DNA of 64,000 nt, taken from NCBI GenBank assembly GCA_963775465.1, contig CAVZIW010000001.1:288001-352000 (forward strand), read 5' to 3'. This document shows, piece after piece, positions 4,683 through 22,624 of this stretch. Position 1 is the stretch's first letter. Every line of letters begins with the position of its first letter. Made by a program: the position numbers and the translations under genes. This DNA is from Candidatus Bathyarchaeota archaeon. GTDB lineage: Archaea; Thermoproteota; Bathyarchaeia; Bathyarchaeales; Bathycorpusculaceae. Below the pieces are notes generated by a model, which saw only the letters and a list, made by a program, of their open reading frames with translations, was not told the origin of the DNA and searched no databases.

Positions 4683-4701
4683 TTGTTATTTGGTCTGTTG
4701 T

Positions 4702-7350
4702 TTATGGTCGTTTCTTCAGCATCAGCAATGCGAGTACCGCAAAGCCTACGATGATTAAGACAACAATGCCTGCGACTGCGGGAACAAAGTAGAGATCAGC
4801 TGGTGATTGTACTGGAGCATTTGTCGGAGCTGCGGTCGGTGCTGGTTCAGTTACGGTGAAGACTGTTTCTTGGTATGATGGCCAGTATCCGTTGGTTCCT
4901 CCGAAAGCAGCGATAAGGTTGTAGGTTCCAGTTATGTCAGGTGTCCAAACAAGGTTGAAGTTGCCCTTTGTATCTGTTGTCGCTGTGCCAATGTCTCGGT
5001 AGTTGCCGTTTGCGTCAACTACGCTTAAGCCGACTTCGACGCCTTGGAAGTTACTGGGTAAAGGTTGCTGCTGGTAAACGTAGCTCATCCATTCGGTCAT
5101 GCTTGTGTCAGAGGAGACTGGAACGCCGTCTGGGAATCTGGCTGCCTGTTCTGTTTGTTTTGTTCCAGCTGAGAGATCTGTGACCGAGCCTTCAATTACA
5201 ACACTGCCGCCTAATGCTGAACTTTTTGGCCCAGCTTGGACGGTTGTGTAACTTGGTCCTCTTCCAAGAGTGTAGATTTGGTGGTCGTAGCTGTTGAAGA
5301 AGTTGGTGTAACCGTCTGCGATGGCATAGCTTTCACCGAAGAATTCACCAGTGGCGCAAGGTAGAGTCCAGATTTCTGTTCCATCGGTTGCGTTGACTGC
5401 GCGTGTCAGTGCTCCTTTGTAGATTGGTGTTTCGAAAGTGTGCTCAGATGTGACTAAGTAGACTACATCATTTCCGATGGCGTTGATGAATGTTGGGTAT
5501 GGTCCTGGTGCTTGGAAGCCGCTGTATGTGTCGTTGCCTGGGACGCCGCCGTTGCCATATGTCCATAGCACGTTTCCTGTTGCCATGTCATAGCAGTATA
5601 ATATGCCTGAGTAGGCACTGCTGTAACATCGACCGTAAGCTACAACGTTTGAAATGGATCCTGGTCCGTTGCTGCCGTAGTAGTCTAGTGCTGCTTGGGG
5701 TTCAGCTACCTTGATGAGTGCCCCTGTCCGCAGGTTCCAGAAGACAAATTGTTGTGTTTCTCTGTAGGATTCACAGAAGTAGCCTGAAGGATCAAGTCCA
5801 GCGTATGAAATCGTGGTTACGCCATTTGCAGGGTTGGAAACGTCCTTACTCCACAATATTGAACCTATCGTTCCTTTTGAAGCGTTGAGGTTAACAGCAA
5901 AGTAGGTATAGCCCGTATAAGTGGATCCTTCTTGTATGTTGGTTAATGATGGGTATGAGCCGCTTCTGCATAGTAGAATGTCCCCGTATATTGCTCCAAG
6001 TATCGACGGTGATGAGCTCATGTCGTTACGCCAGGGTATTGATTGGTTCTGAGTCGTTGGGTTAAGCCAGTCATACATGAAACTACTGCGTGCAGGTATG
6101 TATGTTCCTGAGCTATCCGTAACTGTCATGAGAGTAAGTGCTCCCATAATTGCTTGACTCCAGAATCTACTAGAGTTCCATTGAGAGAGGTACCAGTCTG
6201 GATTTGAATTAGTGCCGTTGTTGTAGAAAACGTATTTTATCATCTCACCCATTGGTCCGATTACGTTTGTTCCAGAGGGAGGAGAAGACACGTTGAATAC
6301 GTTTTCGCCGGTTGCAGCATCGAATACTCTCCCAAAGTTACTTGTGCAGAGAAATGCTGGTCGAACTCCATGGTAGTCTGGGGTATCCATGTCCTGTATG
6401 TAAGCGAAGGATAGTGCGGGAACGTCGGCTCGTCTCCAAATTTCTTGTCCTGTTACTAGGTCAACACAGACTGTTGGTCCAGCGGCACCGCCGAAAAAGC
6501 CAGCAGAGCCAGTCATTGATAATGGTTCTTGGTAGTAGATTCTTCCATTCACTATTATTGGGTTGACATATCGTTGCGAGTATGCTGTTCCTTCAAACCA
6601 TGTGTCTCCCTGAACATTTGCGAGGTTTCCCCCGACGACTCCTCCGATTTGACCGTCTGGCTTAGTCCACATGATGTGCGCTGTCAGTGAACCAATAGCA
6701 TCCGGTGCAAATTGTCGTTGGTTTGGTACGTTACCACCACCGTAGCCTGGCATTCCGCTTCCGAGCCAATTTGAACTGATCGACCACCACATGCTGTTTT
6801 CTCCGAAGATAGGTCGTGTCCAAAACTCAGTTGGAAGAGGACTTAGAGGCAAGAACGAGATAGGTTCTTGCTGCACTGTCAGTGTTGTCGATGCACTGCT
6901 AGCTGCGTATGTGTCGTTCTCGTATTGAGAATTTGGGAGGTATGAATAATCGTTGACTGCTTGTCCTGGGAAGTTGAAGGTGAGGTTGTAGGTGCCTACT
7001 TGGTCGGGTGTGAAGGATGCAAATTGGTTTGACGTTGTGTCCACGACTGTTTCGTAGGTTTGTGTGGTTTGTTTCCCATCTGGTGCCGTAATTTGGAGTT
7101 GATAGTTGTGGAATCTGTAATCGTTGCCAGTGTTTGTGTCAGCGTAGGTTGGTGTTAGAAATATGTAGATGTATGCTGTTTGGCCGACTCCTATCGGGTT
7201 GGTTGCTGCGTATATATGGGCAAACGTCGGTATTTCCCATGGTGGGGTATGACCATCAGTAGATGGCAACTGCAACATTGAAGCGCTTATAGAGACTATC
7301 AATAGTAATACAAATGCAGATACTATTTTATTCAATTTTCTTTCAAACAT
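4702..7350 (-). CDS. Large secreted, C-terminally anchored PQQ-like beta-propeller protein (Bathyarchaeia-type family)
   Basis: Signal peptide; propeller motifs CVDLVTGQEIW, CYDMATGNVLW, AVNATDGTEIW; C-terminal Ig-like region, PT linker, TM and KKRP tail. Confidence 0.88.
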   Translation of the reverse strand: MFERKLNKIVSAFVLLLIVSISASMLQLPSTDGHTPPWEIPTFAHIYAATNPIGVGQTAYIYIFLTPTYADTNTGNDYRFHNYQLQITAPDGKQTTQTYETVVDTTSNQFASFTPDQVGTYNLTFNFPGQAVNDYSYLPNSQYENDTYAASSASTTLTVQQEPISFLPLSPLPTEFWTRPIFGENSMWWSISSNWLGSGMPGYGGGNVPNQRQFAPDAIGSLTAHIMWTKPDGQIGGVVGGNLANVQGDTWFEGTAYSQRYVNPIIVNGRIYYQEPLSMTGSAGFFGGAAGPTVCVDLVTGQEIWRRADVPALSFAYIQDMDTPDYHGVRPAFLCTSNFGRVFDAATGENVFNVSSPPSGTNVIGPMGEMIKYVFYNNGTNSNPDWYLSQWNSSRFWSQAIMGALTLMTVTDSSGTYIPARSSFMYDWLNPTTQNQSIPWRNDMSSSPSILGAIYGDILLCRSGSYPSLTNIQEGSTYTGYTYFAVNLNASKGTIGSILWSKDVSNPANGVTTISYAGLDPSGYFCESYRETQQFVFWNLRTGALIKVAEPQAALDYYGSNGPGSISNVVAYGRCYSSAYSGILYCYDMATGNVLWTYGNGGVPGNDTYSGFQAPGPYPTFINAIGNDVVYLVTSEHTFETPIYKGALTRAVNATDGTEIWTLPCATGEFFGESYAIADGYTNFFNSYDHQIYTLGRGPSYTTVQAGPKSSALGGSVVIEGSVTDLSAGTKQTEQAARFPDGVPVSSDTSMTEWMSYVYQQQPLPSNFQGVEVGLSVVDANGNYRDIGTATTDTKGNFNLVWTPDITGTYNLIAAFGGTNGYWPSYQETVFTVTEPAPTAAPTNAPVQSPADLYFVPAVAGIVVLIIVGFAVLALLMLKKRP

Positions 7351-7374
7351 TTTTTCTTTCTCATTTGTTTTATA

Positions 7375-7438
7375 TTGGGCAAAAAATCCAATTATTGCCC
7401 AACCAAGTAGCTATTTTCATCACTATTAGTATAAATAA
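7375..7438 (-). promoter_or_regulatory. TATA box plus 8-bp inverted repeat upstream of the PQQ-like gene
   Basis: Minus-strand TTATTTATAC at ~7429-7438; TTGGGCAA-N12-TTGCCCAA at 7375-7402. Confidence 0.45.
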
Positions 7439-7611
7439 TTTTTCAATACCACAATTTATTAACTTAATATCATAGCTATATTAGAATATTAAAAAATAAT
7501 TATGACCTAATAAATCGCATCATAAACAACTTTATCAAAAAATGAACTAAACCCAAAACCAGTGGAAAAGCAGTTTCTTTTGCTAACCGGATCTTCGCTT
7601 ATTCAGAAAAA

Positions 7612-7905
7612 CTAAATTAGGCTTGGAAATTCTGCACTATGCTGAATTAGATAAGCAATTGCCCAAACAAATATCACAATATACGCTACCCAAAGCCAAC
7701 TAGTCACTGGACCGTGCGAATCGCGTATTTCGCCTGCAAAGTCATCTGAGTTGTGCTCGGTTTCTTCTACAGTGAACTCATCAGAACTCCTAACCATTAG
7801 CCACATGAGGATAACACCTGCAGCGACGATGCCCAACGTTATGTATGCATAAGTTGGATCAACCATCACAATGAACGCTGTTAACAGAGCAGTATCAAGA
7901 ATCAT
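7612..7905 (-). CDS. Two-TM protein resembling the N-terminal membrane domain of CcoP (FixP_N), without heme domain
   Basis: FAGEIRDSHGPVTSWLWVAYIVIFVWAIAYL resembles the CcoP 'DGIxExdnPlPxWwlxlfyxtivfaxxY' pattern; last gene of the cco operon. Confidence 0.65.
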   Translation of the reverse strand: MILDTALLTAFIVMVDPTYAYITLGIVAAGVILMWLMVRSSDEFTVEETEHNSDDFAGEIRDSHGPVTSWLWVAYIVIFVWAIAYLIQHSAEFPSLI

Positions 7906-8053
7906 ATTCTTCGCTATCCTCCACTAAGGGCAAACGTTTCAAATGTTCATTTTCCTCAAACTGACCTGTCTTTAAAGCCCAAAATACGAAGCCTATCGAT
8001 ACGACTGCCATCAGAATAGAACCTATAATGTAGATCAGTATATCTATATTCAA
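7895..8053 (-). CDS. ccoS: cbb3-type cytochrome oxidase assembly protein CcoS/FixS
   Basis: Manual translation (TTG start overlapping the upstream TGA): MNIDILIYIIGSILMAVVSIGFVFWALKTGQFEENEHLKRLPLVEDSEEYDS*; FxWAxKxGQF signature. Confidence 0.88.
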   Translation of the reverse strand: MNIDILIYIIGSILMAVVSIGFVFWALKTGQFEENEHLKRLPLVEDSEEYDS

Positions 8054-9651
8054 AATAATCTCCTCGTCAACATTGATATCGAAACTATTATTCCCATTTT
8101 CGCGAATTCAAGAGTTTTTAAGAGCTTTCGATACTTTTGATCCCAAAGCAATATACCTGCAAAAATAGCCGTTGCCAAAGCAGCAGCAGTACTGGGTACA
8201 AAGCCACTAATTGTTGATCCTTCCATCAAGTCTCTACCGTAAGAATCGCTGTATAGCGGAGCCCATTTAGCGTTATAGTCTTGAGGTGTACTGAAACTCT
8301 GCTCGTAGAATATCACCTGATAGATTTCCTGGTCATTGAGGGACCATTTCCACGGAGGCATGTTCGTGGTTTCAACGCCCTCCCTAACTTTCCATACCCA
8401 TCGTCCGTAATTGGGGAAGTCGGAACCAGACTCTGTGAAGTTCGCAGGTTCTGGTGAGATGTAGCCGCCAGTTGTTTTAATCGAAGCAGGACCATCACCT
8501 TGCCCCCCATCTCCATGACATTGTGCACAGTAAAGAGTGAAAATCGCTTTTCCTTGTTCAAAATCCTGCATTGTTCCTGTTATCGGTGGAGAGTTTAGGA
8601 CATTGTTAGCGAAATTATCTCCCTCTGCATCTGAAATGTCACCTGAAACAGTTCTCACAGAACCTAATACGAAACTCATTTCGTAAATCGCCACTAGACT
8701 AATCTCTGTTTCATTAAGTGACAAACCCCATGTTGGCATTGCCGTGCCTGGCACACCTTCAGTTACTCGCCAAATATGATAATAGTCTCCAGGAAACGTT
8801 GAGATACGCTCATGCAAGTTGGCTGGTTGCGTCACTACATGTCTTGCGTATGGACCTTGAGCGTTACCTGAGCAACCATGACAAGCTAAACAACGTTGAG
8901 TATAATTGGCTTTACCAATTTCAAATATAGTTGCCCATTGTGCTCCCAACGAAGTACTACCATTATAGACATCGTTTTCAGCATCATAACTCACAGCTAC
9001 TTGTTTCATCAAGGGCGCGAAAAGGTTTGAGGCATTTACGAAATTCTCTGGAACATCTGGATGGTAAGAGCTTCCTCCAGTGATTGATAGGTCTACTCCA
9101 AGATCTTTTGAACCCAGGTTCTGAATGTATGCTGTCAAAGCCTCAATCTCGTGATCACTAAGAAAACCAAAATTAGGCATTATCGATCCAGGACTTACAC
9201 TTCTTGGATCTCTATCATGTAAATGATGCCAAATGGTTGGTCTCATTCCGCCGATTTGGGCAAGATCAGGACCTGTTCTCTCAGTACCTAGAGCGTTTGG
9301 GCTATCATAATAGTAGTCTCCGGTTTGCGATACGTTTCCTATGCCCCAGTCGGAAGGTCTTACTTGTTGGGAGTGACAGTAGAAGCAGCCATAACTCATG
9401 AAGAGGCTTCTGCCTTCAGCTTCAAGAGGAGTATACTCGTGAGATCTGTCACTGGGTGGAACATCCAGCAAGAACATGTAAGGCGCAAGTACCACCATGC
9501 TCACCATAAGCAGCATGACTCCTAAACCGCCAGCGGCAATAGGAAAGAGGTTATGTTGATGAGCCTTTTTTTCAATGACTTTGATTTCTCTTTCTACTGC
9601 TCGCTCAAGCCTTTCCAGCTCTTCCTCTATTTTCTTTTCTAGCCTGCTCAT
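8050..9651 (-). CDS. ccoO: cbb3-type oxidase subunit II (CcoO) fused to two extra class I cytochrome c domains (triheme)
   Basis: GCFYCHSQQVRP, GTERTGPDLA and SIMP are CcoO hallmarks; further CLACH...AMPTW and CAQCH...NMPPW. Confidence 0.92.
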   Translation of the reverse strand: MSRLEKKIEEELERLERAVEREIKVIEKKAHQHNLFPIAAGGLGVMLLMVSMVVLAPYMFLLDVPPSDRSHEYTPLEAEGRSLFMSYGCFYCHSQQVRPSDWGIGNVSQTGDYYYDSPNALGTERTGPDLAQIGGMRPTIWHHLHDRDPRSVSPGSIMPNFGFLSDHEIEALTAYIQNLGSKDLGVDLSITGGSSYHPDVPENFVNASNLFAPLMKQVAVSYDAENDVYNGSTSLGAQWATIFEIGKANYTQRCLACHGCSGNAQGPYARHVVTQPANLHERISTFPGDYYHIWRVTEGVPGTAMPTWGLSLNETEISLVAIYEMSFVLGSVRTVSGDISDAEGDNFANNVLNSPPITGTMQDFEQGKAIFTLYCAQCHGDGGQGDGPASIKTTGGYISPEPANFTESGSDFPNYGRWVWKVREGVETTNMPPWKWSLNDQEIYQVIFYEQSFSTPQDYNAKWAPLYSDSYGRDLMEGSTISGFVPSTAAALATAIFAGILLWDQKYRKLLKTLEFAKMGIIVSISMLTRRLF

Positions 9652-11075
9652 TTCACTTCGCCTCCATAGTTTTCGACAGTGTTAGGATGCACTAAATGTT
9701 TTGATAAGAATGTGGCAATGATTTCTATGGAAAAAAGAAAAGCTGAAACCACAACCATTCCGCCTCCTATTGCCCTTAAAATGTAGTAAGGTCTTAGCGT
9801 ATCTAATGCTTGAACTACTGTCAAGTGTTGATACCACTGCGAGTTGGCTACAAGTCCTGTGAGCATCATTCCCGCCATGAAAACTATGAAACCCATGAAA
9901 GTGACCCACCAAGTCACGTCCATTAGTTTCTTGCTGTAGAGTTTCTTTCCAGTTATTCGGGGCACTAGCCAGAACATGCAGCCCATGATCGATATTCCAA
10001 AAGCAGCATACAGCGATAAGTGAGAATGCATTACCGGCCATTGCGAAAAATGGAGGTACAAGTTCATGTCACGGAAGGCTTGAAATGTCCCTTGGATGGA
10101 GACGAAAATATAGTTAATAAAACCAAGCATTATGAACCTTAAAGGAACATTTGACCACACAATATTCCAAGCATTCCGAACAGTCATGCCAATGTTTACT
10201 CCAAAAGTCAGAACGGAAAACATCATTAAACCACTAGTAGCGACCGCTATTGTTTTGAGCCACTCTGGAATTGGAGCTTGCAGCAAATGATGCCCTCCCA
10301 CGCCAGTGTAGAAGAAAGCTAAAGCAAAGAAACTGATGTAAGATAATGTCACGCTATAAAGTGCCCGTTTAGTTAGTCTTGGTATGAAATAATACCATAG
10401 ACCAAACCCGAATGGAGTAAACCATAACCCTAAGACGTTGTGTCCATAGAACCAGTTAAATATTCCATCCGTTACGCCAAATAATGCTCCAGTTGGGGGC
10501 CTCCACATTACGTTACCAATGAAATACACTATTGGAAACCAGAGAAAAATAGCTACATAAAACCATAAGCTAACATATAGCTTGGGTTCTTTTCTTTTCA
10601 GAACTGTTCCTAAAACATTTACAAGCATTAAAATTAAGCCAATCATTATCGCAACATCGATAATCCACGGAAATTCTGCGTATTCCCTCGCTTGAGTATC
10701 ACCACTTAAAACCAGGAGCACTCCGGTGATAACTACAAGGTTCCAAAATACAGCTGTGAATTTTCCGATATTGGGCTTATAAAGAGGTGTTTTGCTAAGC
10801 CGAGGAACTATATAGTACATTATACCGATTAAACCAGATGAAAGGAAACCGAAGAGCAGGCCGTTAACGTGTGCCGGACGGATTCTTCCAAACGTATCAA
10901 AAGGCGAATCAACAAGAAATGTTGGTACGAAAAACTTGATTGCCATAATCATACCAATCGTGGTGAAAATGGGGAACCAGACCATAGCGAAATAGAACCA
11001 AAGTTTCGACACGCTATCTGCGTTTTTCAGATCAGTTGTCGTTTCACTAGTAGTTACTGCGTTGTCTTCAGACAA
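9648..11075 (-). CDS. ccoN: cbb3-type cytochrome c oxidase subunit I (C-family heme-copper oxygen reductase)
   Basis: About 12 TM helices; RPAHVN, REYAE, WFYGHNVLG, YTGVGGHH (Tyr six residues before the HH pair), HSH. Confidence 0.94.
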   Translation of the reverse strand: MSEDNAVTTSETTTDLKNADSVSKLWFYFAMVWFPIFTTIGMIMAIKFFVPTFLVDSPFDTFGRIRPAHVNGLLFGFLSSGLIGIMYYIVPRLSKTPLYKPNIGKFTAVFWNLVVITGVLLVLSGDTQAREYAEFPWIIDVAIMIGLILMLVNVLGTVLKRKEPKLYVSLWFYVAIFLWFPIVYFIGNVMWRPPTGALFGVTDGIFNWFYGHNVLGLWFTPFGFGLWYYFIPRLTKRALYSVTLSYISFFALAFFYTGVGGHHLLQAPIPEWLKTIAVATSGLMMFSVLTFGVNIGMTVRNAWNIVWSNVPLRFIMLGFINYIFVSIQGTFQAFRDMNLYLHFSQWPVMHSHLSLYAAFGISIMGCMFWLVPRITGKKLYSKKLMDVTWWVTFMGFIVFMAGMMLTGLVANSQWYQHLTVVQALDTLRPYYILRAIGGGMVVVSAFLFSIEIIATFLSKHLVHPNTVENYGGEVK

Positions 11076-11210
11076 GAAATCTCTTCCTGTTCAGTCATTT
11101 CCATTTAGTTTCTTTTTTAATCTTTGTAGTAGTCTAGCGACAACAACAACTCTTTTTTGGTCAATTCTAAGTAGCTCAAGGGTTTTATATTTTAGAAGTT
11201 CAAATACTAA

Positions 11211-11669
11211 GTGGTAGGTGTCATGTCTCTAACCTATTACGAAGTTCATGAGTGGATGGCCCTAGCAAATCTCGTGTCTTTCGTTATCGTGTTAAGTCTG
11301 CTAATCGGGTTAAGTTTTTTTCTACAAAAAAAGAGAAAATTTGTTTGGCACGGTAATGTTATGCTCGTGGTCGTTATGATTGCGGGCTTGCTAACGGTAG
11401 CTCATATGGGACCATCTTTATGGTGGATAGTTGCAGAAGCGTTGAAAAGCTTCGACGTGGTTGCCTTAATAGGCATAGTTCATGGCGCTGTTGGATTAGT
11501 GGCGCTTTCGCTCGGAATTTGGCTTGTAGGTGTCTGGGCGTACATTCAATCTGGAGAGACCCGATACTGTGCTCCAAGAAAAAAGTTAATGCGGAAAATC
11601 ATTATACTTTGGGTAGTGGCTTTAGCGCTTGGAGTGATATATTACCCCTTACATTTAATTTTGGGGTAG
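11211..11669 (+). CDS. Four-TM His-containing membrane protein, DUF420/CtaM-like
   Basis: Four hydrophobic helices with His at WHG, AHMG and VHG; divergent from ccoN and convergent on ccmF; family call is by resemblance only. Confidence 0.6.
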   Translation: MVGVMSLTYYEVHEWMALANLVSFVIVLSLLIGLSFFLQKKRKFVWHGNVMLVVVMIAGLLTVAHMGPSLWWIVAEALKSFDVVALIGIVHGAVGLVALSLGIWLVGVWAYIQSGETRYCAPRKKLMRKIIILWVVALALGVIYYPLHLILG

Positions 11670-11682
11670 TTGCACCCTTAGC

Positions 11683-13585
11683 TCATGATTCTTGCTTCGA
11701 CGGTCTAAGATCACCTAAGAATTGAACAGATATTCCAACAAGCATTAAGATGACTCCTCCCCAAACCAGATAGATCATTGGATTTTTCTGGATCGTGACT
11801 GTTACTTCTTCGGGGATTTTGCTATTTCCCTCATACGTTTGAACGAGTGCATTGTAAAGCGAATCTGAATACTCTAAGTGTATATACATATCGCCCGCCT
11901 CCGTGGTTATAATGAGAGGTCTAAGTATCAGGCCATAATTGGGGTAAAAGCTGCCTTCTATCACTCCCTTATAAATTCTCTCGGATTGAACAATAGCCAC
12001 ATCTGCTTCAAGGGTGGAGTGTTCAGGTATGACTGCTAGCGCCTGATCATTGTAGATTTTTGCTGAACTGTTGCTAATTCTCATGTTGGACAACGCGATG
12101 GTTTGTTGTGAAGTTTCCATTGGAGTATTGGTTGTCATGTTTATTGTGACTGTGGTTTTAGCTCCTGCACTTATGAAGACTCCAAGCAGCAGAACGATAA
12201 TTGCAATGCTCAGAAGACTTTGTCCAATTAGTTTTGCGGCTTTTCGCCTGATTGAATTGTATAGACCGTAGACGATGGCTGAACACCCCAGAACTAAAAG
12301 AGGAATAGTTAGAGTGGTAAGAATATTTACTTCAAAAAATCCGACTATCGATAGAGCAGCCCCAATCACTAAGGCAGCTATGGCAATTAGCAGAAGGCGT
12401 AAGTAATGGGTCTTAGGATCTAAGTTAAACCCTATCATTGCTGCTACAAAAATCAGCACGAACGGGAACGTCCACAAATTATAGTTAAAGTCTGAAAAAG
12501 CAAGTCCGACTAGACAAACAACTGCGATAAAAATCAACGCCCAAAAACCCAGAAAGGAGGAACGTGAAGTCAAAGATGTTTTGTCAACGTTAAGTTTGAA
12601 GAGAGGCAGCCTCCTCTTCTTCTTAAGATAAAAGAAATAGGCTATCATAACTACCGCAAAACTAAGCATTATCGGACCAACGGCAGAAACGGCATAAGAG
12701 TGAACTGACTGGGTAAATCCTCCGCGAGTTAATGCACTCAAAAAAACCAAGCTGGCGAATGTTATCATGATCATAAATTCTCTGGTTAGGCTAAACTTGC
12801 TCTTTGAAATTCCTCTCACGATGAAATATGCGGTTAAGAAAAGCCACGGCAACAAAGAAGCGGTTTCCACAGGATCCCACGCCCAGTATCCACCCCAGCC
12901 CAAGACTTCGTAAGCCCAAACTCCGCCCAAAGCTATCCCAAGGGTGAGAAGCAGCCAAGCCATGTATGTGGAAGTCTTAAGAAGCTTTGATGAGTCCAAG
13001 TCTTTGCCTTCCATAACACAGGCTAGAGTCAAGGCGTATGCTAAAACCACGAAGGCATAAGCGGAGAAAACTATTGGAGGGTGAATGGCCATCCAAAGTG
13101 ACTGCAACTGAGGGTTAAGCCCTCTGCCCTCAAGAGGGATGCCCTGAAAAGTTTCGAATGGATTTCTCAGCATGCAAACAATAATGAAAACCAAGAGGAT
13201 AAAACCAAACACTTGAGCGGCGTTCACACTAAACTTATCGGCTTTTCTAAGAGATTGAATTCTTAACGCGAAATAGACTGTACTTAAAAGAACAGTTAAA
13301 AAAAGCATAGAGCCCCCTGCTCCAGCCCAACTCGCGTAAATCTTGGAAAAGATAGAGGCACCTGACGAACTATAGGAGAATACCCCAATTATTTGAAAGT
13401 CATTACGAACGAAAGCTTAGCAAAAGCAATGCATAAGCCGTAATTATCAGCCCAAATGCTAAAGTCGTTGCTACAAAACCACTCGTGTTCTTTCGTTTGC
13501 TACCCGATTTCGACGTGACTAAAAATACGGTGTCTAAAAGAACCAATATGGCCGAAGTAAATAACAAGAATATCTCGTAAGCCAT
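11683..13585 (-). CDS. ccmF: Cytochrome c biogenesis heme lyase CcmF (System I), split by a +1 frameshift at ~13417
   Basis: GLNPQLQ...IHPP, WAYEVLGWGGYWAWDPVET, TRGG...SVHSY; the shifted frame between the two ORFs reads AFVRNDFQ...YSS...KIYASWAGAGGSMLF, the CcmF N-terminal motif. Confidence 0.9.
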
Positions 13586-13950
13586 TTTGTATGCAAGAAT
13601 AGTCCTAATCGCAGTTAATATTTAAAGTATGCTGCTAACAAACTAATGCCAAAAACAAATCATTACTTGAAAACAAGTAGACACTTGTTATCTATACTAA
13701 AGTCCTCCTTGTGCCATAGCCCTCCGTTAGACCTAACGATGATCGCCTCTGTTGCAAAACTTGTTTTATCAAAAAGACAATGTTTTCTGCTCTCCAGAAA
13801 ATAGCAGAATATAGGAATATCCTTACTTGAACATCTTTCGACGTTGAAAATTCCGCAGGTATATTCGTCTTCAGCAGCCACATAATTTTACAATAGTCGG
13901 CACTATTGGATAGAATTATATGCTCCATTTGACAGAAGAAATCGTAAAGG

Positions 13951-14478
13951 ATGAAGATGAGAAATTCAAAACTAATAATTTCAGTCACAATTGTCTCTGC
14001 TTTGATTGTTAGTATATTTTTGCTGTATTCAACCTCCAACTACTTCGATGCAATGGGCGCTATAAAAATTGACCTTGTTAAAAGCTATCAAGACTTCGAA
14101 ATAGGCGTACCACAAATTGAACAATTAAACGTAAAAAACCTCGCAAATAGGTCCTGGCAGATAGAGATCTCTGAATTTGACATCTGGGGTAGCGAAGGAC
14201 TTGATCCTTCGGGTGCCACACTAAAATGGAAACTCGAATCCGTTTCTCCAACCTTTGCAACAATTAAAACCTGCGAGCACGAAGGACTCATCGCCTATAA
14301 AGATTATCAAAAAATAGATTTGCCTTCGAACTACGATGGCGTTTTAGCGTTTGAATTGATTTTCAATAACGCTCCTAAAGGAAACTATACGCGTTTACTG
14401 ACCATTAGCATATATGACCCACAAGGCGAAGCTGACGTTTGGCAATGGCAAAGCACAACAAACTTTGCGATTACATAA
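13951..14478 (+). CDS. Hypothetical N-terminally anchored/secreted protein
   Basis: Basic N-terminus, hydrophobic helix and beta-rich extracellular domain. Confidence 0.7.
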   Translation: MKMRNSKLIISVTIVSALIVSIFLLYSTSNYFDAMGAIKIDLVKSYQDFEIGVPQIEQLNVKNLANRSWQIEISEFDIWGSEGLDPSGATLKWKLESVSPTFATIKTCEHEGLIAYKDYQKIDLPSNYDGVLAFELIFNNAPKGNYTRLLTISIYDPQGEADVWQWQSTTNFAIT

Positions 14479-19467: not shown

Positions 19468-22400
19468 TTACGCATTTTCAGGTTTTCGTTTTAATCGCCT
19501 GACTGCTATTACTGCGTAGATTAGAATGATTTCAGGGATAGCTATGCCAACGGCAAGAACTGGACCAAAGGTTATTGATTGGATTTGAGGTCCTGCAAAT
19601 TGTATTTTCATCTCGTGTGCACTAAAGTCTGTTGTGAACCAAACGTAGAAGGAGTTGGCATCTTGTGTATATCCTTGATTTGTACCCCTTAGACCATCCA
19701 CAAACAGAACAGGGATTGTTCCAAAAGGTATAGCGTTTTTTGGTATAGTCATATTGCAATAGCCCGAGTTGCCGTTTTCACCCGTTAATTTAAAAGATAT
19801 TGTAGTTGTGGCGGAATTATTTGTCGTTATAGCTACACTAGATATCTGCGAGTTTGTTATGTTTCCAACCATTGAAATATAAACTTGTGAGCCGCTCTCG
19901 GTCGTTGCAAATACGTTTGTTTTTAATTGATTGGGCGTAGGTGATGGGGCTGGAGAAGGAGTGATTGAAGGGTTAGATGTCCCCGTGGGAGTTGGTTTTA
20001 CTGTAGGAGAAGCAGTTTGGCCAGGAGAAGGGGTTGATGCAAGCGATACTGTAAAAGAATTACTAACGCCATTTATACCATTATCTGCAGCTGTAATTTG
20101 GGCGTTTGAATTTGCGACTGCCACTATCACTGAAGTTGTGCCTATTCCGTTAACAAACGGATTCATGCTGGTTGGACTAATTGTTCCAGCGGAGTATGTC
20201 AAAGAAGGCGTTCCAACATAATTTGTAACAGTGTTATTGTAGACGTCTTGAGCTGTAACTGTAATGTTAAAGGCAGAGCCAACTGTCTGACCACTGATAT
20301 CACTAATAGCAAAATGGTCAAGAGCACTAGGATTAACTGTGAATGTGCCGCTTGTTCCCGACATTCCGGAGCCAGAAGTTATAAGCCAAATTCCTGAACC
20401 AGCACCGGTTACGGTCACTGAACCGGTCCAAACACCGTTTACGAAGCTGCCAGTTGTAGCTGGACTAATAGTTCCAGTTGAAACATTCAAAATGTTAGTT
20501 CCACTATAGTTCGTAAGCGTATTATTAAATGGGTTTTTTGCTGTAATTGTAATGTTAAAAGGTGTACCTGCGGTCTGAACGCCAACAGAACTGAAAATAA
20601 AATGATCAAGCGGAGCAACATTCACTGCGACAGAAACAGCAGAAGAATTCACTGCTGCACCAGCAGTATCTGTTACTTGAAGAATGAAACTCCAAATACC
20701 AGTGGCTGTAGCACCTGAAGTAATAAAATTAAAACTTGCTGAGTTTGAGCCCACCGCAGCGTAGTTTCCATTAGAGAACTCTTTGGAACCATTGATACGA
20801 ATAAGGTGAGGTGCCTGTAGTAACATTTGTTGAGGTCAAATTGCTGCTTTGACCCTGATTTATCGTGCTTGCTGAAGCAGATATAGTCGGCGCAACCAAA
20901 GCAGGATTCGACGTAACAGATACAGCGTTTGAAGCGCACAGTTATCGGAGTCGAAGCACTATCAGTCACATTAGCAGTAAATCGAATGCGAAGCCCCAGA
21001 GCAGCGTTATAGATTATAAGCCGAAGTCGTCTGACCTGAAACTGCAGAATCATCCAAATACCACTGATAACTAAGGGCACCTGAACCACCAACAACCGTA
21101 GCATTAAACATCTGAATCTGGCCAACATCCATCTTCGAAGCAGCAGCGGGCGCCACACTAACATTTGGGGAGGCATTAACTGTAACAGATGCAGCAGTGG
21201 ATTGAGCAGAAGTCGTACCTAAACTATCAGTAACCGTCACAGTAATCAAGTAAGAACCCGCAGAAACAGCAGAAAAACTAAACGTAGAAGTTGTCTGACC
21301 ACTCTGAAGTGCCCCATTCACATACCACCTGTAAGAAGAATAAAAACCTGACCCACCAGATGCATTAGCCGTAAAAGTCTTAGACGGTTGACCAACATCC
21401 ATAACCCAAGAAGCAGGCAACACAACCACAGTCGGAACTGCTGCATTAACAGTAACCGTCACTGGGTTAGAAGTCTTCATGACCGAAACGGCGTCAGTAA
21501 CCTGAAGTTCAAAACTCCAGCCACCAGTAGATGTTGAAATCGAAGTAACAAAAGAATAGCTAGATGAAGTCGCACCACTAATCGTCGAGTAGGAACCCGC
21601 ATTAGGAGCCTTTGAAAACCACTGATACGTATAAGGAGAAGTACCCGTAGAAACATTAGTAGAAAACAAATTACTAGTTCTGACCCTGGGTAATCGGGGA
21701 GGGAAAAGCAGACACAGTCGGAGCAACCAAAGCAGGATTCACCGTAACAGACACAGAGTTTGAGCGCACAGTTATCGGAGTCGAAGCACTATCAGTCACA
21801 TTAACATAAATCGAATGCGAAGACCCCAGAGCAGCGTTATAATAATAAGCCGAAGTCGTCTGACCTGAAACTGCAGAACCATCCAAATACCACTGATAAC
21901 TAAGGGCACCTGAACCACCAACAACCGTAGCATTAAACATCTGAATCTGGCCAACATCCATCTTCAAAGCAGCAGCAGGCGCCACACTAACATTTGGGAA
22001 GGCATTAACAGTAACAGATGCAGCAGTGGATTGAGCAGAAGTCGTACCTAAACTATCAGTAACCGTCACAGTAATCAAGTAAGAACCCGCAGAAACAGCA
22101 GAAAAACTAAACGTAGAAGTTGTCTGACCACTCTGAAGTGCCCCATTCACATACCACCTGTAAGAAGAATAAAAACCTGACCCACCAGATGCATTAGCCG
22201 TAAAAGTCTTAGACGGTTGACCAACATCCATAACCCAAGAAGCAGGCAACACAACCACAACCAGAGGAGCTTGTACTGTAAAAGCAGCAAGACCTATATT
22301 GTTGTTGAGGTCTGTTGCAGAAATAGAGTGACTCCCAACCGCCGCAACCGGAATGGTGATGTTAGCAACAAAAGAGCCAAAAATATCAGCAGTCACTTGA

Positions 22401-22624
22401 CTCGGTGTAGTAGTCAGTGTTGTGCCATCAAATTTTATTGTTATTGATGATCCGGAAGCAAAACCGCTCAAGAAGGCAGCTGAAACGGTAACTGTGTCAC
22501 CAACATAACCAAAATTTGTACTTAGACTTATGGTCGCAGTGGCAGCCTTTGCTGGCATAGTCACGAATACTCCTATTGACAGCAAAACAAGAATTACACT
22601 CAGCAGGATTGATAATTTCTTCAT
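19468..22624 (-). CDS. Large anchored surface protein with IPT/PKD/Ig-like repeats, broken by several frameshifts
   Basis: Signal peptide at 22624; SGGSG..SYxWY repeats; PT linker, C-terminal TM and basic tail at 19468; four track ORFs join across shifts at ~21678 and ~21010-20820. Confidence 0.8.
20870..22260. repeat. Near-identical intragenic direct repeat, ~420-bp clean core with 829-bp offset
   Basis: ~21015-21430 matches ~21844-22259; similarity continues with indels over ~20870-21010 versus ~21705-21840. Confidence 0.9.

Follow-up and report, generated by a model that had tools for sequence, protein, structure and literature searches.

We analysed 64,000 nucleotides (nt; hereafter the window) of the Candidatus Bathyarchaeota archaeon assembly GCA_963775465.1 (contig CAVZIW010000001.1, positions 288,001 to 352,000), in which six neighbouring genes appear to specify a C-family (cbb3-type) oxygen reductase together with proteins for its maturation. 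A preliminary description of this DNA, made from the letters alone, had placed six genes here, the four oxidase genes among them with overlapping stop and start codons, and all six were recovered at the same positions, the overlaps between the oxidase genes being ATGA, TTGA and 11 nt. Judged from its sequence, the unit is a conserved, divergent C-family cassette that would function in the manner of cbb3, although it falls outside the canonical CcoNOQP group. In the following, G000 designates the source genome of the window, other G numbers are sampled genomes, L numbers are loci and X numbers are sequencing runs; the samples comprised 120 genomes of the host genus and 401 genomes of the class. 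The features of the cassette are:

7612..7905, minus strand: stand-alone CcoP N-terminal-like two-helix subunit (FixP_N-like), 97 aa; PF14715, E 3.8e-4, below the cut-off
7895..8053, minus strand: ccoS (FixS) maturation peptide, 52 aa; PF03597, E 2.5e-8, above the cut-off
8050..9651, minus strand: CcoO fused to two CcoP-like cytochrome c domains, 533 aa; PF02433, PF13442 twice, three CxxCH motifs
9648..11075, minus strand: ccoN, predicted C-family heme-copper O2 reductase catalytic subunit of the Gln328 subfamily, 475 aa; PF00115, E 4e-78, and matches to cbb3 structures
11211..11669, plus strand: DUF420/CtaM-like four-helix membrane protein, candidate copper-handling assembly factor; PF04238 in orthologues, four-helix model
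11683..13404, minus strand: ccmF main reading frame with WWD domain; PF01578, TIGR00353, alignment to 6ZMQ and orthologues
13403..13585, minus strand: N-terminal piece of ccmF, which in G022 is in the same frame as the rest of the gene

Oxidase genes

The catalytic subunit CcoN matched cbb3 structures in the Protein Data Bank (PDB) with E values of 4e-61 to 2e-51, followed by ba3 (~1e-10) and NorB (4e-7). Its six histidine ligands for heme b, heme b3 and CuB (H69, H212, H262, H263, H350 and H352) all align to those of P. stutzeri 3MK7, R66 and E131/E134 are also retained, and Tyr256 is kept in helix VII, six residues ahead of the His-His pair (YTGVGGHH). The ligands, the EYAE motif and the helix-VII tyrosine had already been pointed out, correctly, in the preliminary description, which overlooked that the canonical Glu323 is replaced by Gln328 and that the position of His243 is occupied by Ser. 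T220, Y228, S245 and Y322, which we take to serve the proton channel, are retained. The CuB region reads HNVLG, compared with HPEVY in A- and B-type enzymes and HLWVE in NO reductases (NORs), with Gly at the position of the NOR glutamate. Tyr256, this Gly and the ranking of cbb3 far above NorB support the original assignment to the C-family O2 reductases and not to the NORs; O2 reduction with proton pumping is predicted. The alignments show, at this level, a CuB/heme b3/His-Tyr site and one proton channel in CcoN, with the triheme subunit as the predicted outside entry for electrons.

The protein nevertheless scores only 255.6 bits against TIGR00780 (cut-off 583.15), below the canonical CcoN equivalog. 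Gln328 is common to all aligned relatives from Bathyarchaeia, Methanoperedens, Syntrophales, Chloroflexi and Actinomycetota and to one Paraburkholderia plasmid copy; Glu323 is kept in the two alphaproteobacterial CcoN sequences aligned. Because the glutamine occurs throughout the aligned relatives, it is a subfamily trait and not damage. Glu323 is presumably the hydrogen-bond partner of the heme b3 ligand. The CcoO-P fusion has CxxCH motifs and candidate axial methionines at residues 89/156, 254/303 and 375/429, and CcoS is conserved across the Bathyarchaeia cassette loci. The FixP_N-like peptide scores 20.5 bits against a cut-off of 24.9, and the loci of Methanoperedens and Syntrophales likewise have a homologue downstream of the oxidase.

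Host genome

The G000 assembly has 2.42 Mb, with a contamination of 3.45%, and the window lies inside a 431-kb contig. The host belongs to the Bathyarchaeia: the same-genus genome G022 carries a 99%-identical CcoN, and the nearest named records are also Bathyarchaeia. Judged by habitat and by the size of its genus, the host may be a member of Bathy-6/Baizomonas. Contigs of the independent DNA run X1 bridge both borders of the cassette (6770-9860 and 12453-14274), and this run covers 30/30 bins of the window. At least half of the sampled words were present in 17 of the 24 runs listed; these 17 are wetland, salt-marsh and soil metagenomes. Among 1368 genome open reading frames (ORFs), ccoO, ccoN and ccmF lie at the 40th, 78th and 83rd percentiles of GC3. 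These data support an archaeal, non-chimeric locus of ameliorated composition, as had been proposed at the outset. The anaerobic core ascribed to the host was likewise supported, in that acetyl-CoA synthase was found in 5/5 carriers.

Distribution and evolution of the cassette

Heme-copper oxidases (PF00115) occur in 46/120 genus genomes. Checked at the level of the locus, the C type is present in 16/120, with two copies in G115; G015 and G115 also carry the other oxidase type. In the other 30 oxidase-bearing genomes, the six loci read look A-family and the rest are assigned by score only. The A-family operons of the genus (L092, L093, L104-L107) contain COX2, heme O synthase-like, sulfocyanin-like copper protein and DUF420 genes and a gluconate-2-dehydrogenase-like GMC pair, and may occur in up to 30/120 genomes. 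PF02433 is found in 11/401 class genomes, belonging to five genera, three families and two orders. The six-gene unit, with varying flanks, is present in 15 of the 16 genus carriers, the exception being G113, where the contig ends within it, and in three further genera with complete loci. Synonymous sites are saturated (pS 0.69-0.90) and pN is 0.11-0.33 (15 pairs per gene, four genes); between the window and G022, ccoN differs by 19 synonymous and three non-synonymous changes.

A FastTree phylogeny of 96 CcoN sequences, with a single NorB and without L030, L043, L052, L077 and L239 (no long ORF), places the Bathyarchaeia in one clade (0.999) with G233 basal; the sister group is Syntrophales (0.989), followed by Methanoperedens (0.987). 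The lateral acquisition proposed earlier holds in so far as exchange with other anaerobes is supported; but root support is 0.244, so that no donor can be named and the direction of transfer is not established. In topology tests monophyly of the genus was not rejected for CcoN (p-AU 0.20). The grouping of G103 with G126, sisters in the rpoB DNA tree, was rejected (delta logL 150.6; 2000 replicates, flagged as few), which indicates at least one oxidase replacement within the genus relative to rpoB.

A respiratory island in another order

G233, a Bathyarchaeon of another order, has a full respiratory island on one 42.7-kb contig (L125, L133; G233:C13:1-30000). It encodes an 11-heme cytochrome with NrfC-/NrfD-like genes, two more cytochromes that are MtrC-like (10 hemes) and NapC-like (12 hemes), then ccmF, ccmC, ccmE, ccmA, ccmB and tatAC, the cco genes followed by DUF420, and a NiFe hydrogenase. 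Cytochromes for quinol oxidation are thus retained here beside a complete ccmABCEF set. The window cassette resembles a reduced form of this kind of island, a reading drawn from one genome.

CcmF and the missing System I partners

The preliminary description had taken 11683-13585 as one ccmF gene. The gene is present, but a 1-nt insertion near 13419, not in a homopolymer, breaks it into pieces of 60 and 573 codons. In its 90% cluster, five of the seven members are full-length (633 aa) and near-identical, the G022 copy is intact, and a 541-aa form is also present. Where reads could check the insertion, the X1 contig over 12453-14274 has two gaps and X10 gives almost no cover at 12012-14015. We favour an assembly error in G000, with fair confidence, over a private recent lesion. 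In G476, the ccmF frame continues without a stop into a gene for an amino-acid permease (L124:3386-6916, 1176 aa), probably an assembly artefact.

The WWD motif and the periplasmic histidines P-His1 and P-His2 are kept in 120/120 CcmF homologues. TM-His1, placed by alignment to 6ZMQ, and TM-His2, placed by alignment to G233 and outgroups, are both absent in 19/19 CcmF copies from carriers without CcmE, and both present in G233, which has ccmABCE; TM-His1 is present in all 50 parsable outgroup loci (of 80). A metagenome scan with P0189, a CcmF that keeps these histidines, gave no close relative. At E<1e-28 CcmF occurs in the genus only in the 16 carriers. CcmE (PF03100) was found in 0/120 genus genomes and in 0/4 carriers from other genera of the order, with positive controls that included M. 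acetivorans and G233, and ResB/CcsB (PF05140) was found in 0/120 genus genomes. A CcmB-like match in G000 is an ABC-2 permease, true CcmB being present in 0/5 genomes tested; CcmC, CcmE and CcmB of G233 matched only the WWD region of CcmF in G000; and a weak PF01578 match at G000:C4 lies inside what is, judged by its operon, presumably an ATPase subunit gene. The module is not self-contained, contrary to the preliminary description: CcmE and CcsB were found in none of the 120 genomes, and heme synthesis was not found in G000.

Judged by these alignments and searches, the window CcmF differs from System I in two respects, the CcmE/CcmABC partners and the TM-His accessory heme site. According to a published proposal (PMC10663686), the accessory heme serves to reduce holo-CcmE, whose heme is oxidised, so that joint loss of CcmE and the TM histidines is coherent. 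The nearest outgroups are archaeal-type CcmFs, three of the top four adjoining ccmC and ccmE, and ccmF was not seen beside the 11/11 nearest Methanoperedens, Syntrophales and other oxidase loci tested (two of them only ~3 kb). By its sequence relationships, CcmF derives from the archaeal System I lineage and has a history differing from that of CcoN. The cassette would therefore have been assembled inside the Bathyarchaeia, and the earlier suggestion that it brought its own heme-c lyase is not supported.

Other c-type cytochromes and a possible mini-lyase

Further potential clients for heme attachment are encoded in G000: a membrane-anchored protein of the di-heme cytochrome c peroxidase/MauG family (L132:5152-6468; G000:C8:73151-74467), present in 3/120 genomes, all of them cassette carriers (G000, G022 and G125), and a monoheme protein; by motif, a catalase is also encoded. 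A second PF01578 protein, here called mini-lyase, occurs in 20/120 genus genomes, which have no CcmE or CcsB. At the loci read it comprises 131-135 aa with IHPP, the WWD motif WGSYWSWDPKET and GLHS and has no TM His, and it adjoins, or forms the rear part of a fusion with, a monoheme CxxCH protein that is secreted and has a Pro/Thr stalk:

L151:4742-5137 (G081), L146:5097-5504, L147:5243-5647, L155:4850-5248 and L156:5115-5519: free mini-lyase
L129:5061-6215, and also L149, L150, L152 and L153: fused mini-lyase

A structure model of the mini-lyase gave weak matches to the cores of CcmC, CcsBA and CcmF (TM score 0.60-0.62, E 0.02-0.14). The monoheme protein is present in 22 genomes, namely all 20 with the mini-lyase plus G000 and G022 (one lineage), whose sole WWD protein is the cassette CcmF; 13 of the 20 mini-lyase genomes are without any CcmF. 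The mini-lyase may attach heme itself, as a lyase, or load it in the manner of CcmC; it is a candidate minimal or self-maturing cytochrome c system, and its pairing with the monoheme protein suggests that the genus attaches heme without an exporter.

Heme supply and electron donors

Among the 16 carriers, HemB is present in eight, AhbA/B in four and neither in eight, including G000, where a tblastn search that took the hem/cbi clusters from G014 and G129 as queries found no hemA, hemB, hemC or hemD. The site of these clusters lies inside contig C8 in G000 (G000:C8:99530-104067), which there contains an ABC uptake cluster and a radical-SAM-like gene instead; some gene labels of these clusters are our assumption. 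The preliminary description had named a genome without heme supply whose genes are untranscribed as contradicting its reading; the first half of this agrees with G000, no heme synthesis having been found.

No bd complex was found in 5/5 carriers. UbiA matches look like lipid prenyltransferases, and one split ORF has a weak MenA match (E 2.6e-6); they were set aside. The complex I-like cluster retains both CxxC motifs of a hydrogenase large subunit. A fusion protein of G000 (L134:7885-10056; G000:C3:179884-182055) joins an RnfD-like membrane flavoprotein with Fe-S and FrhB domains, and RnfD-like homologues are present in 5/5 carriers. Elsewhere in the genus, a bc-like module (L115:134-3268) consists of a cytochrome b5-Rieske fusion and a cytochrome b, with a blue copper protein where cytochrome c1 would be; its PF13631 occurs in 18/120 genomes, none of them cbb3 carriers.

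DUF420/CtaM-like protein

PF04238 matched 10 of 15 orthologues at E<=1 (best 2.4e-4) but not the window protein, and DUF420 is present in 28-32% of the members of its atlas neighbours. As with the FixP_N-like peptide, the profile match behind the label given in the preliminary description is weak. Five His, three Met and one Cys are each retained in 117-120/120 homologues, and the structure model has four helices (pLDDT 76.9). CtaM has been proposed to be a copper exporter (PMC13344008), and the window protein is likely a copper-handling assembly factor.

Alternatively, this His-rich protein could be a transmembrane heme wire or heme shuttle that replaces a quinol oxidase or CcmABCE, which we regard as improbable, though the strongest of the competing explanations. 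His65 and His148 are kept in 118-120/120 cassette homologues and are absent in G233 and in the three A-family-linked copies aligned, and a DUF420 gene at L157, which has a weak match to cytochrome b561, adjoins a ccm cluster on a contig with no oxidase. However, the His/Met/Cys pattern suits copper and CtaM genetics indicate copper export; in G233 the DUF420 gene comes after the cco operon, and the His65/His148 contrast rests on one G233-type genome; and fold searches with the model returned generic four-helix bundles only, with no cytochrome b fold standing out.

Proposed function and alternatives

We consider it rather likely that the cassette is the high-affinity O2 reductase of an otherwise anaerobic Bathyarchaeon, with minimal maturation and bc-independent electron input. 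A wetland or soil Bathyarchaeon would thereby remove O2 in micro-oxic episodes and gain some proton-motive force besides. Assembly of the enzyme would quite probably fall to CcoS, the FixP_N-like peptide and the CtaM-like protein, the last exporting copper in place of CcoI/CcoG. CcmF alone would, somewhat less surely, attach heme c; it would do so at the outward-facing WWD/P-His site with ferrous heme taken up free from the membrane or medium, and its accessory heme site would have been lost because there is no oxidised holo-CcmE to reduce. In G000 the heme would, with good likelihood, be scavenged. Electrons would reach the enzyme without a bc or ACIII complex. Their source is the weakest point of the proposal: a quinone-independent route from cytoplasmic F420H2 or ferredoxin through the RnfD-type membrane flavoprotein to the outer hemes is put forward tentatively, and input from external reductants (humics, Fe(II), sulfide) is ranked a little behind it. 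More broadly, it is conceivable, at somewhat less than even chance, that the genus matures c-type cytochromes by a bare outward WWD/His site (solo CcmF or mini-lyase) with free or scavenged heme and no CcmABCE/CcsB, and runs its oxidase without a quinol:cytochrome c reductase.

Several observations weigh against this proposal. Among close CcmF homologues, 9/120 retain TM-His1 and 21/120 TM-His2, one subclade retaining both, and Methanosarcina cannot do without CcmABC and CcmE (PMC9084895). As to electron donors, bc-type cytochrome b was found in 0/16 carriers (versus 13/30 other oxidase-bearing genomes), NrfD and HdrE-like proteins in 0/4 genus carriers, and MqnA/D in 0/5 carriers; the RnfD-like homologues were sampled in carriers only, so that the count shows no enrichment. 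The replacement of Glu323 by Gln may change the chemistry. RNA contigs match ccoO, ccoN and ccmF at 99-100% identity (X19, 13/30 bins; X20, 6/30 bins), but they are few, have a depth of 3-6, come from a single study without a silent-DNA control and were not accepted as proof of transcription. G000 is only 92% complete, and cassette genes are frameshifted in G000, G103, G113, G115 (both copies) and G121, that is, in 5/16 genus carriers. In some assemblies with frameshifted cassette genes, rpoB and hemB are likewise broken.

These frameshifts, the position of the G000 insertion outside a homopolymer, and the lack of detectable donor modules, ccmABCE and heme synthesis in G000 would also fit a decaying or silent relic of a G233-type island, in which CcmF is non-functional without CcmE and the G000 break is true pseudogenisation. 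The combination of saturated synonymous sites with low pN, and catalytic residues that do not vary from genus to genus, speak against decay, as do the five intact, near-identical CcmF copies and the ratio of synonymous to non-synonymous changes between the window and G022, and we give this explanation little weight. An equally small chance is left to an enzyme that, as a chemically altered C subfamily, mainly reduces NO or detoxifies another substrate and does not respire O2. Every examined subfamily member has Gln in place of Glu323, the relatives are largely anaerobes, and C-family enzymes are able to reduce NO in vitro (PMC11214002); but the cross-linking Tyr and the channel residues are retained, Gly stands where NORs have a Glu after the first CuB His, and a cNOR-type architecture is lacking. 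Finally, a bacterial contaminant or chimera, suggested by the mostly bacterial occurrence of CcoN-type oxidases and the contamination value of G000, can be practically dismissed, given the 431-kb contig, the independent contigs across both borders, the 16 genus genomes with the cassette and the single Bathyarchaeia clade.

Among the archaea of paddies and wetlands, Bathyarchaeia are the dominant group, and most models treat them as anaerobes; a high-affinity oxidase in 16/120 genomes (any heme-copper oxidase, 46/120) would give a mechanism for their reported micro-oxic niche. Current models hold CcmE and the CcmF accessory heme to be essential, and these are natural proteins without both; if the broader reading of maturation by a bare WWD/His site is true, both the minimal maturation route and the electron input would be undescribed. 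A heme lyase made of a single gene would show which partners the WWD domain requires, and expression of cytochromes c in archaeal hosts could become simpler with it.

Other features of the window

Recent transfer between G000 and G022 was rejected as evidence: the cassette is 98-99.6% identical between them, but the genome background has a median of 95.75%, with 16/102 fragments at >=98%. Across window positions 4700-8000, identity to G022 jumps from 76-91% in a beta-propeller gene to ~99% at the cassette border, which suggests a recombination edge or a fast-evolving surface gene. This gene (4702-7350) was discarded as a cassette member; it flanks the cassette in G000 and G022 only, with distant paralogues near three other loci. 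Two overlapping PKD/Ig-domain ORFs at 21007-22624 may be one frameshifted gene, and a long glycosylation gene cluster of low GC occupies 28957-62716.

Comparison with known systems

Cytochrome c oxidases were reported only in Houtuousia in the available text of Hou 2023 (PMC10321748), and the C family was described as sparse in archaea by Murali 2024 (PMC11214002). In Dataset S6 of the latter, the Bathyarchaeia rows listed score C in 0/127 and A in 18/127, two of these being PALSA-986, and a Methanoperedens row is scored C=1. Micro-oxic tolerance of Bathy-6 is described in a 2025 review (PMC12694404) and a paddy study (PMC10908009), whose available parts name no such enzyme. Kletzin 2015 names 17 archaeal species that combine candidate cytochromes with 0-1 ccm genes, and gives no mechanism in the part available. 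In the available text of PMC13503563, PMC7565565 and PMC13502194 the cbb3 enzymes are bacterial, and neither 'cbb' nor 'Cco' occurs in the available text of PMC7327174. Our literature search, which covered papers outside subscription, found no cbb3 in Bathyarchaeia and no CcmE-less archaeal CcmF; the Murali 2022 sequence sets and the Hou supplements could hold an entry. A-family oxidases are thus already published for Bathyarchaeia, and the C family was not found in print, so that the surprise expressed in the preliminary description stands for the C family but is narrower than first stated.

Canonical cbb3 oxidases (CcoNOQP; P. stutzeri 3MK7/5DJQ, and PDB 9G6B, 9G83, 6XKW and 8SMR) share with the window enzyme the metal ligands, EYAE, the helix-VII Tyr, most channel residues, c-type electron entry and CcoS. 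In contrast to them, the window has CcoO fused to two CcoP-like hemes, the CcoP N-terminus as a separate gene, and no ccoQ, ccoG, ccoH or ccoI in the cassette, and the carriers have no bc complex. CtaM (DUF420) of Bacillus subtilis and Staphylococcus aureus resembles the window DUF420-like protein as a four-helix protein tied to heme-copper oxidases, whereas the latter has additional conserved outer-face His, a C-family enzyme as partner and a score below the Pfam cut-off. The CcmF of archaeal System I (CcmABCEF; Methanosarcina acetivorans, Gupta 2022) and of T. thermophilus (6ZMQ) shares with the window CcmF the fold family, the WWD motif, both periplasmic His and both conduit Trp. The A-family oxidases of Bathyarchaeia also represent heme-copper O2 reduction in the same class, and DUF420 genes stand beside the inspected loci too; the window differs in having a c-type subunit instead of COX2 plus blue copper, and neither heme O synthase nor GMC oxidoreductase adjoins. 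The closest relatives are the fused CcoN-O-P oxidases of Syntrophales and Methanoperedens (52-56% identity to the window CcoN), which, with the Chloroflexi/Actinomycetota subfamily, have the same Gln, three hemes and a FixP_N-like gene downstream. Unlike these, the window splits CcoN from CcoO-P and packages both with ccmF and DUF420.

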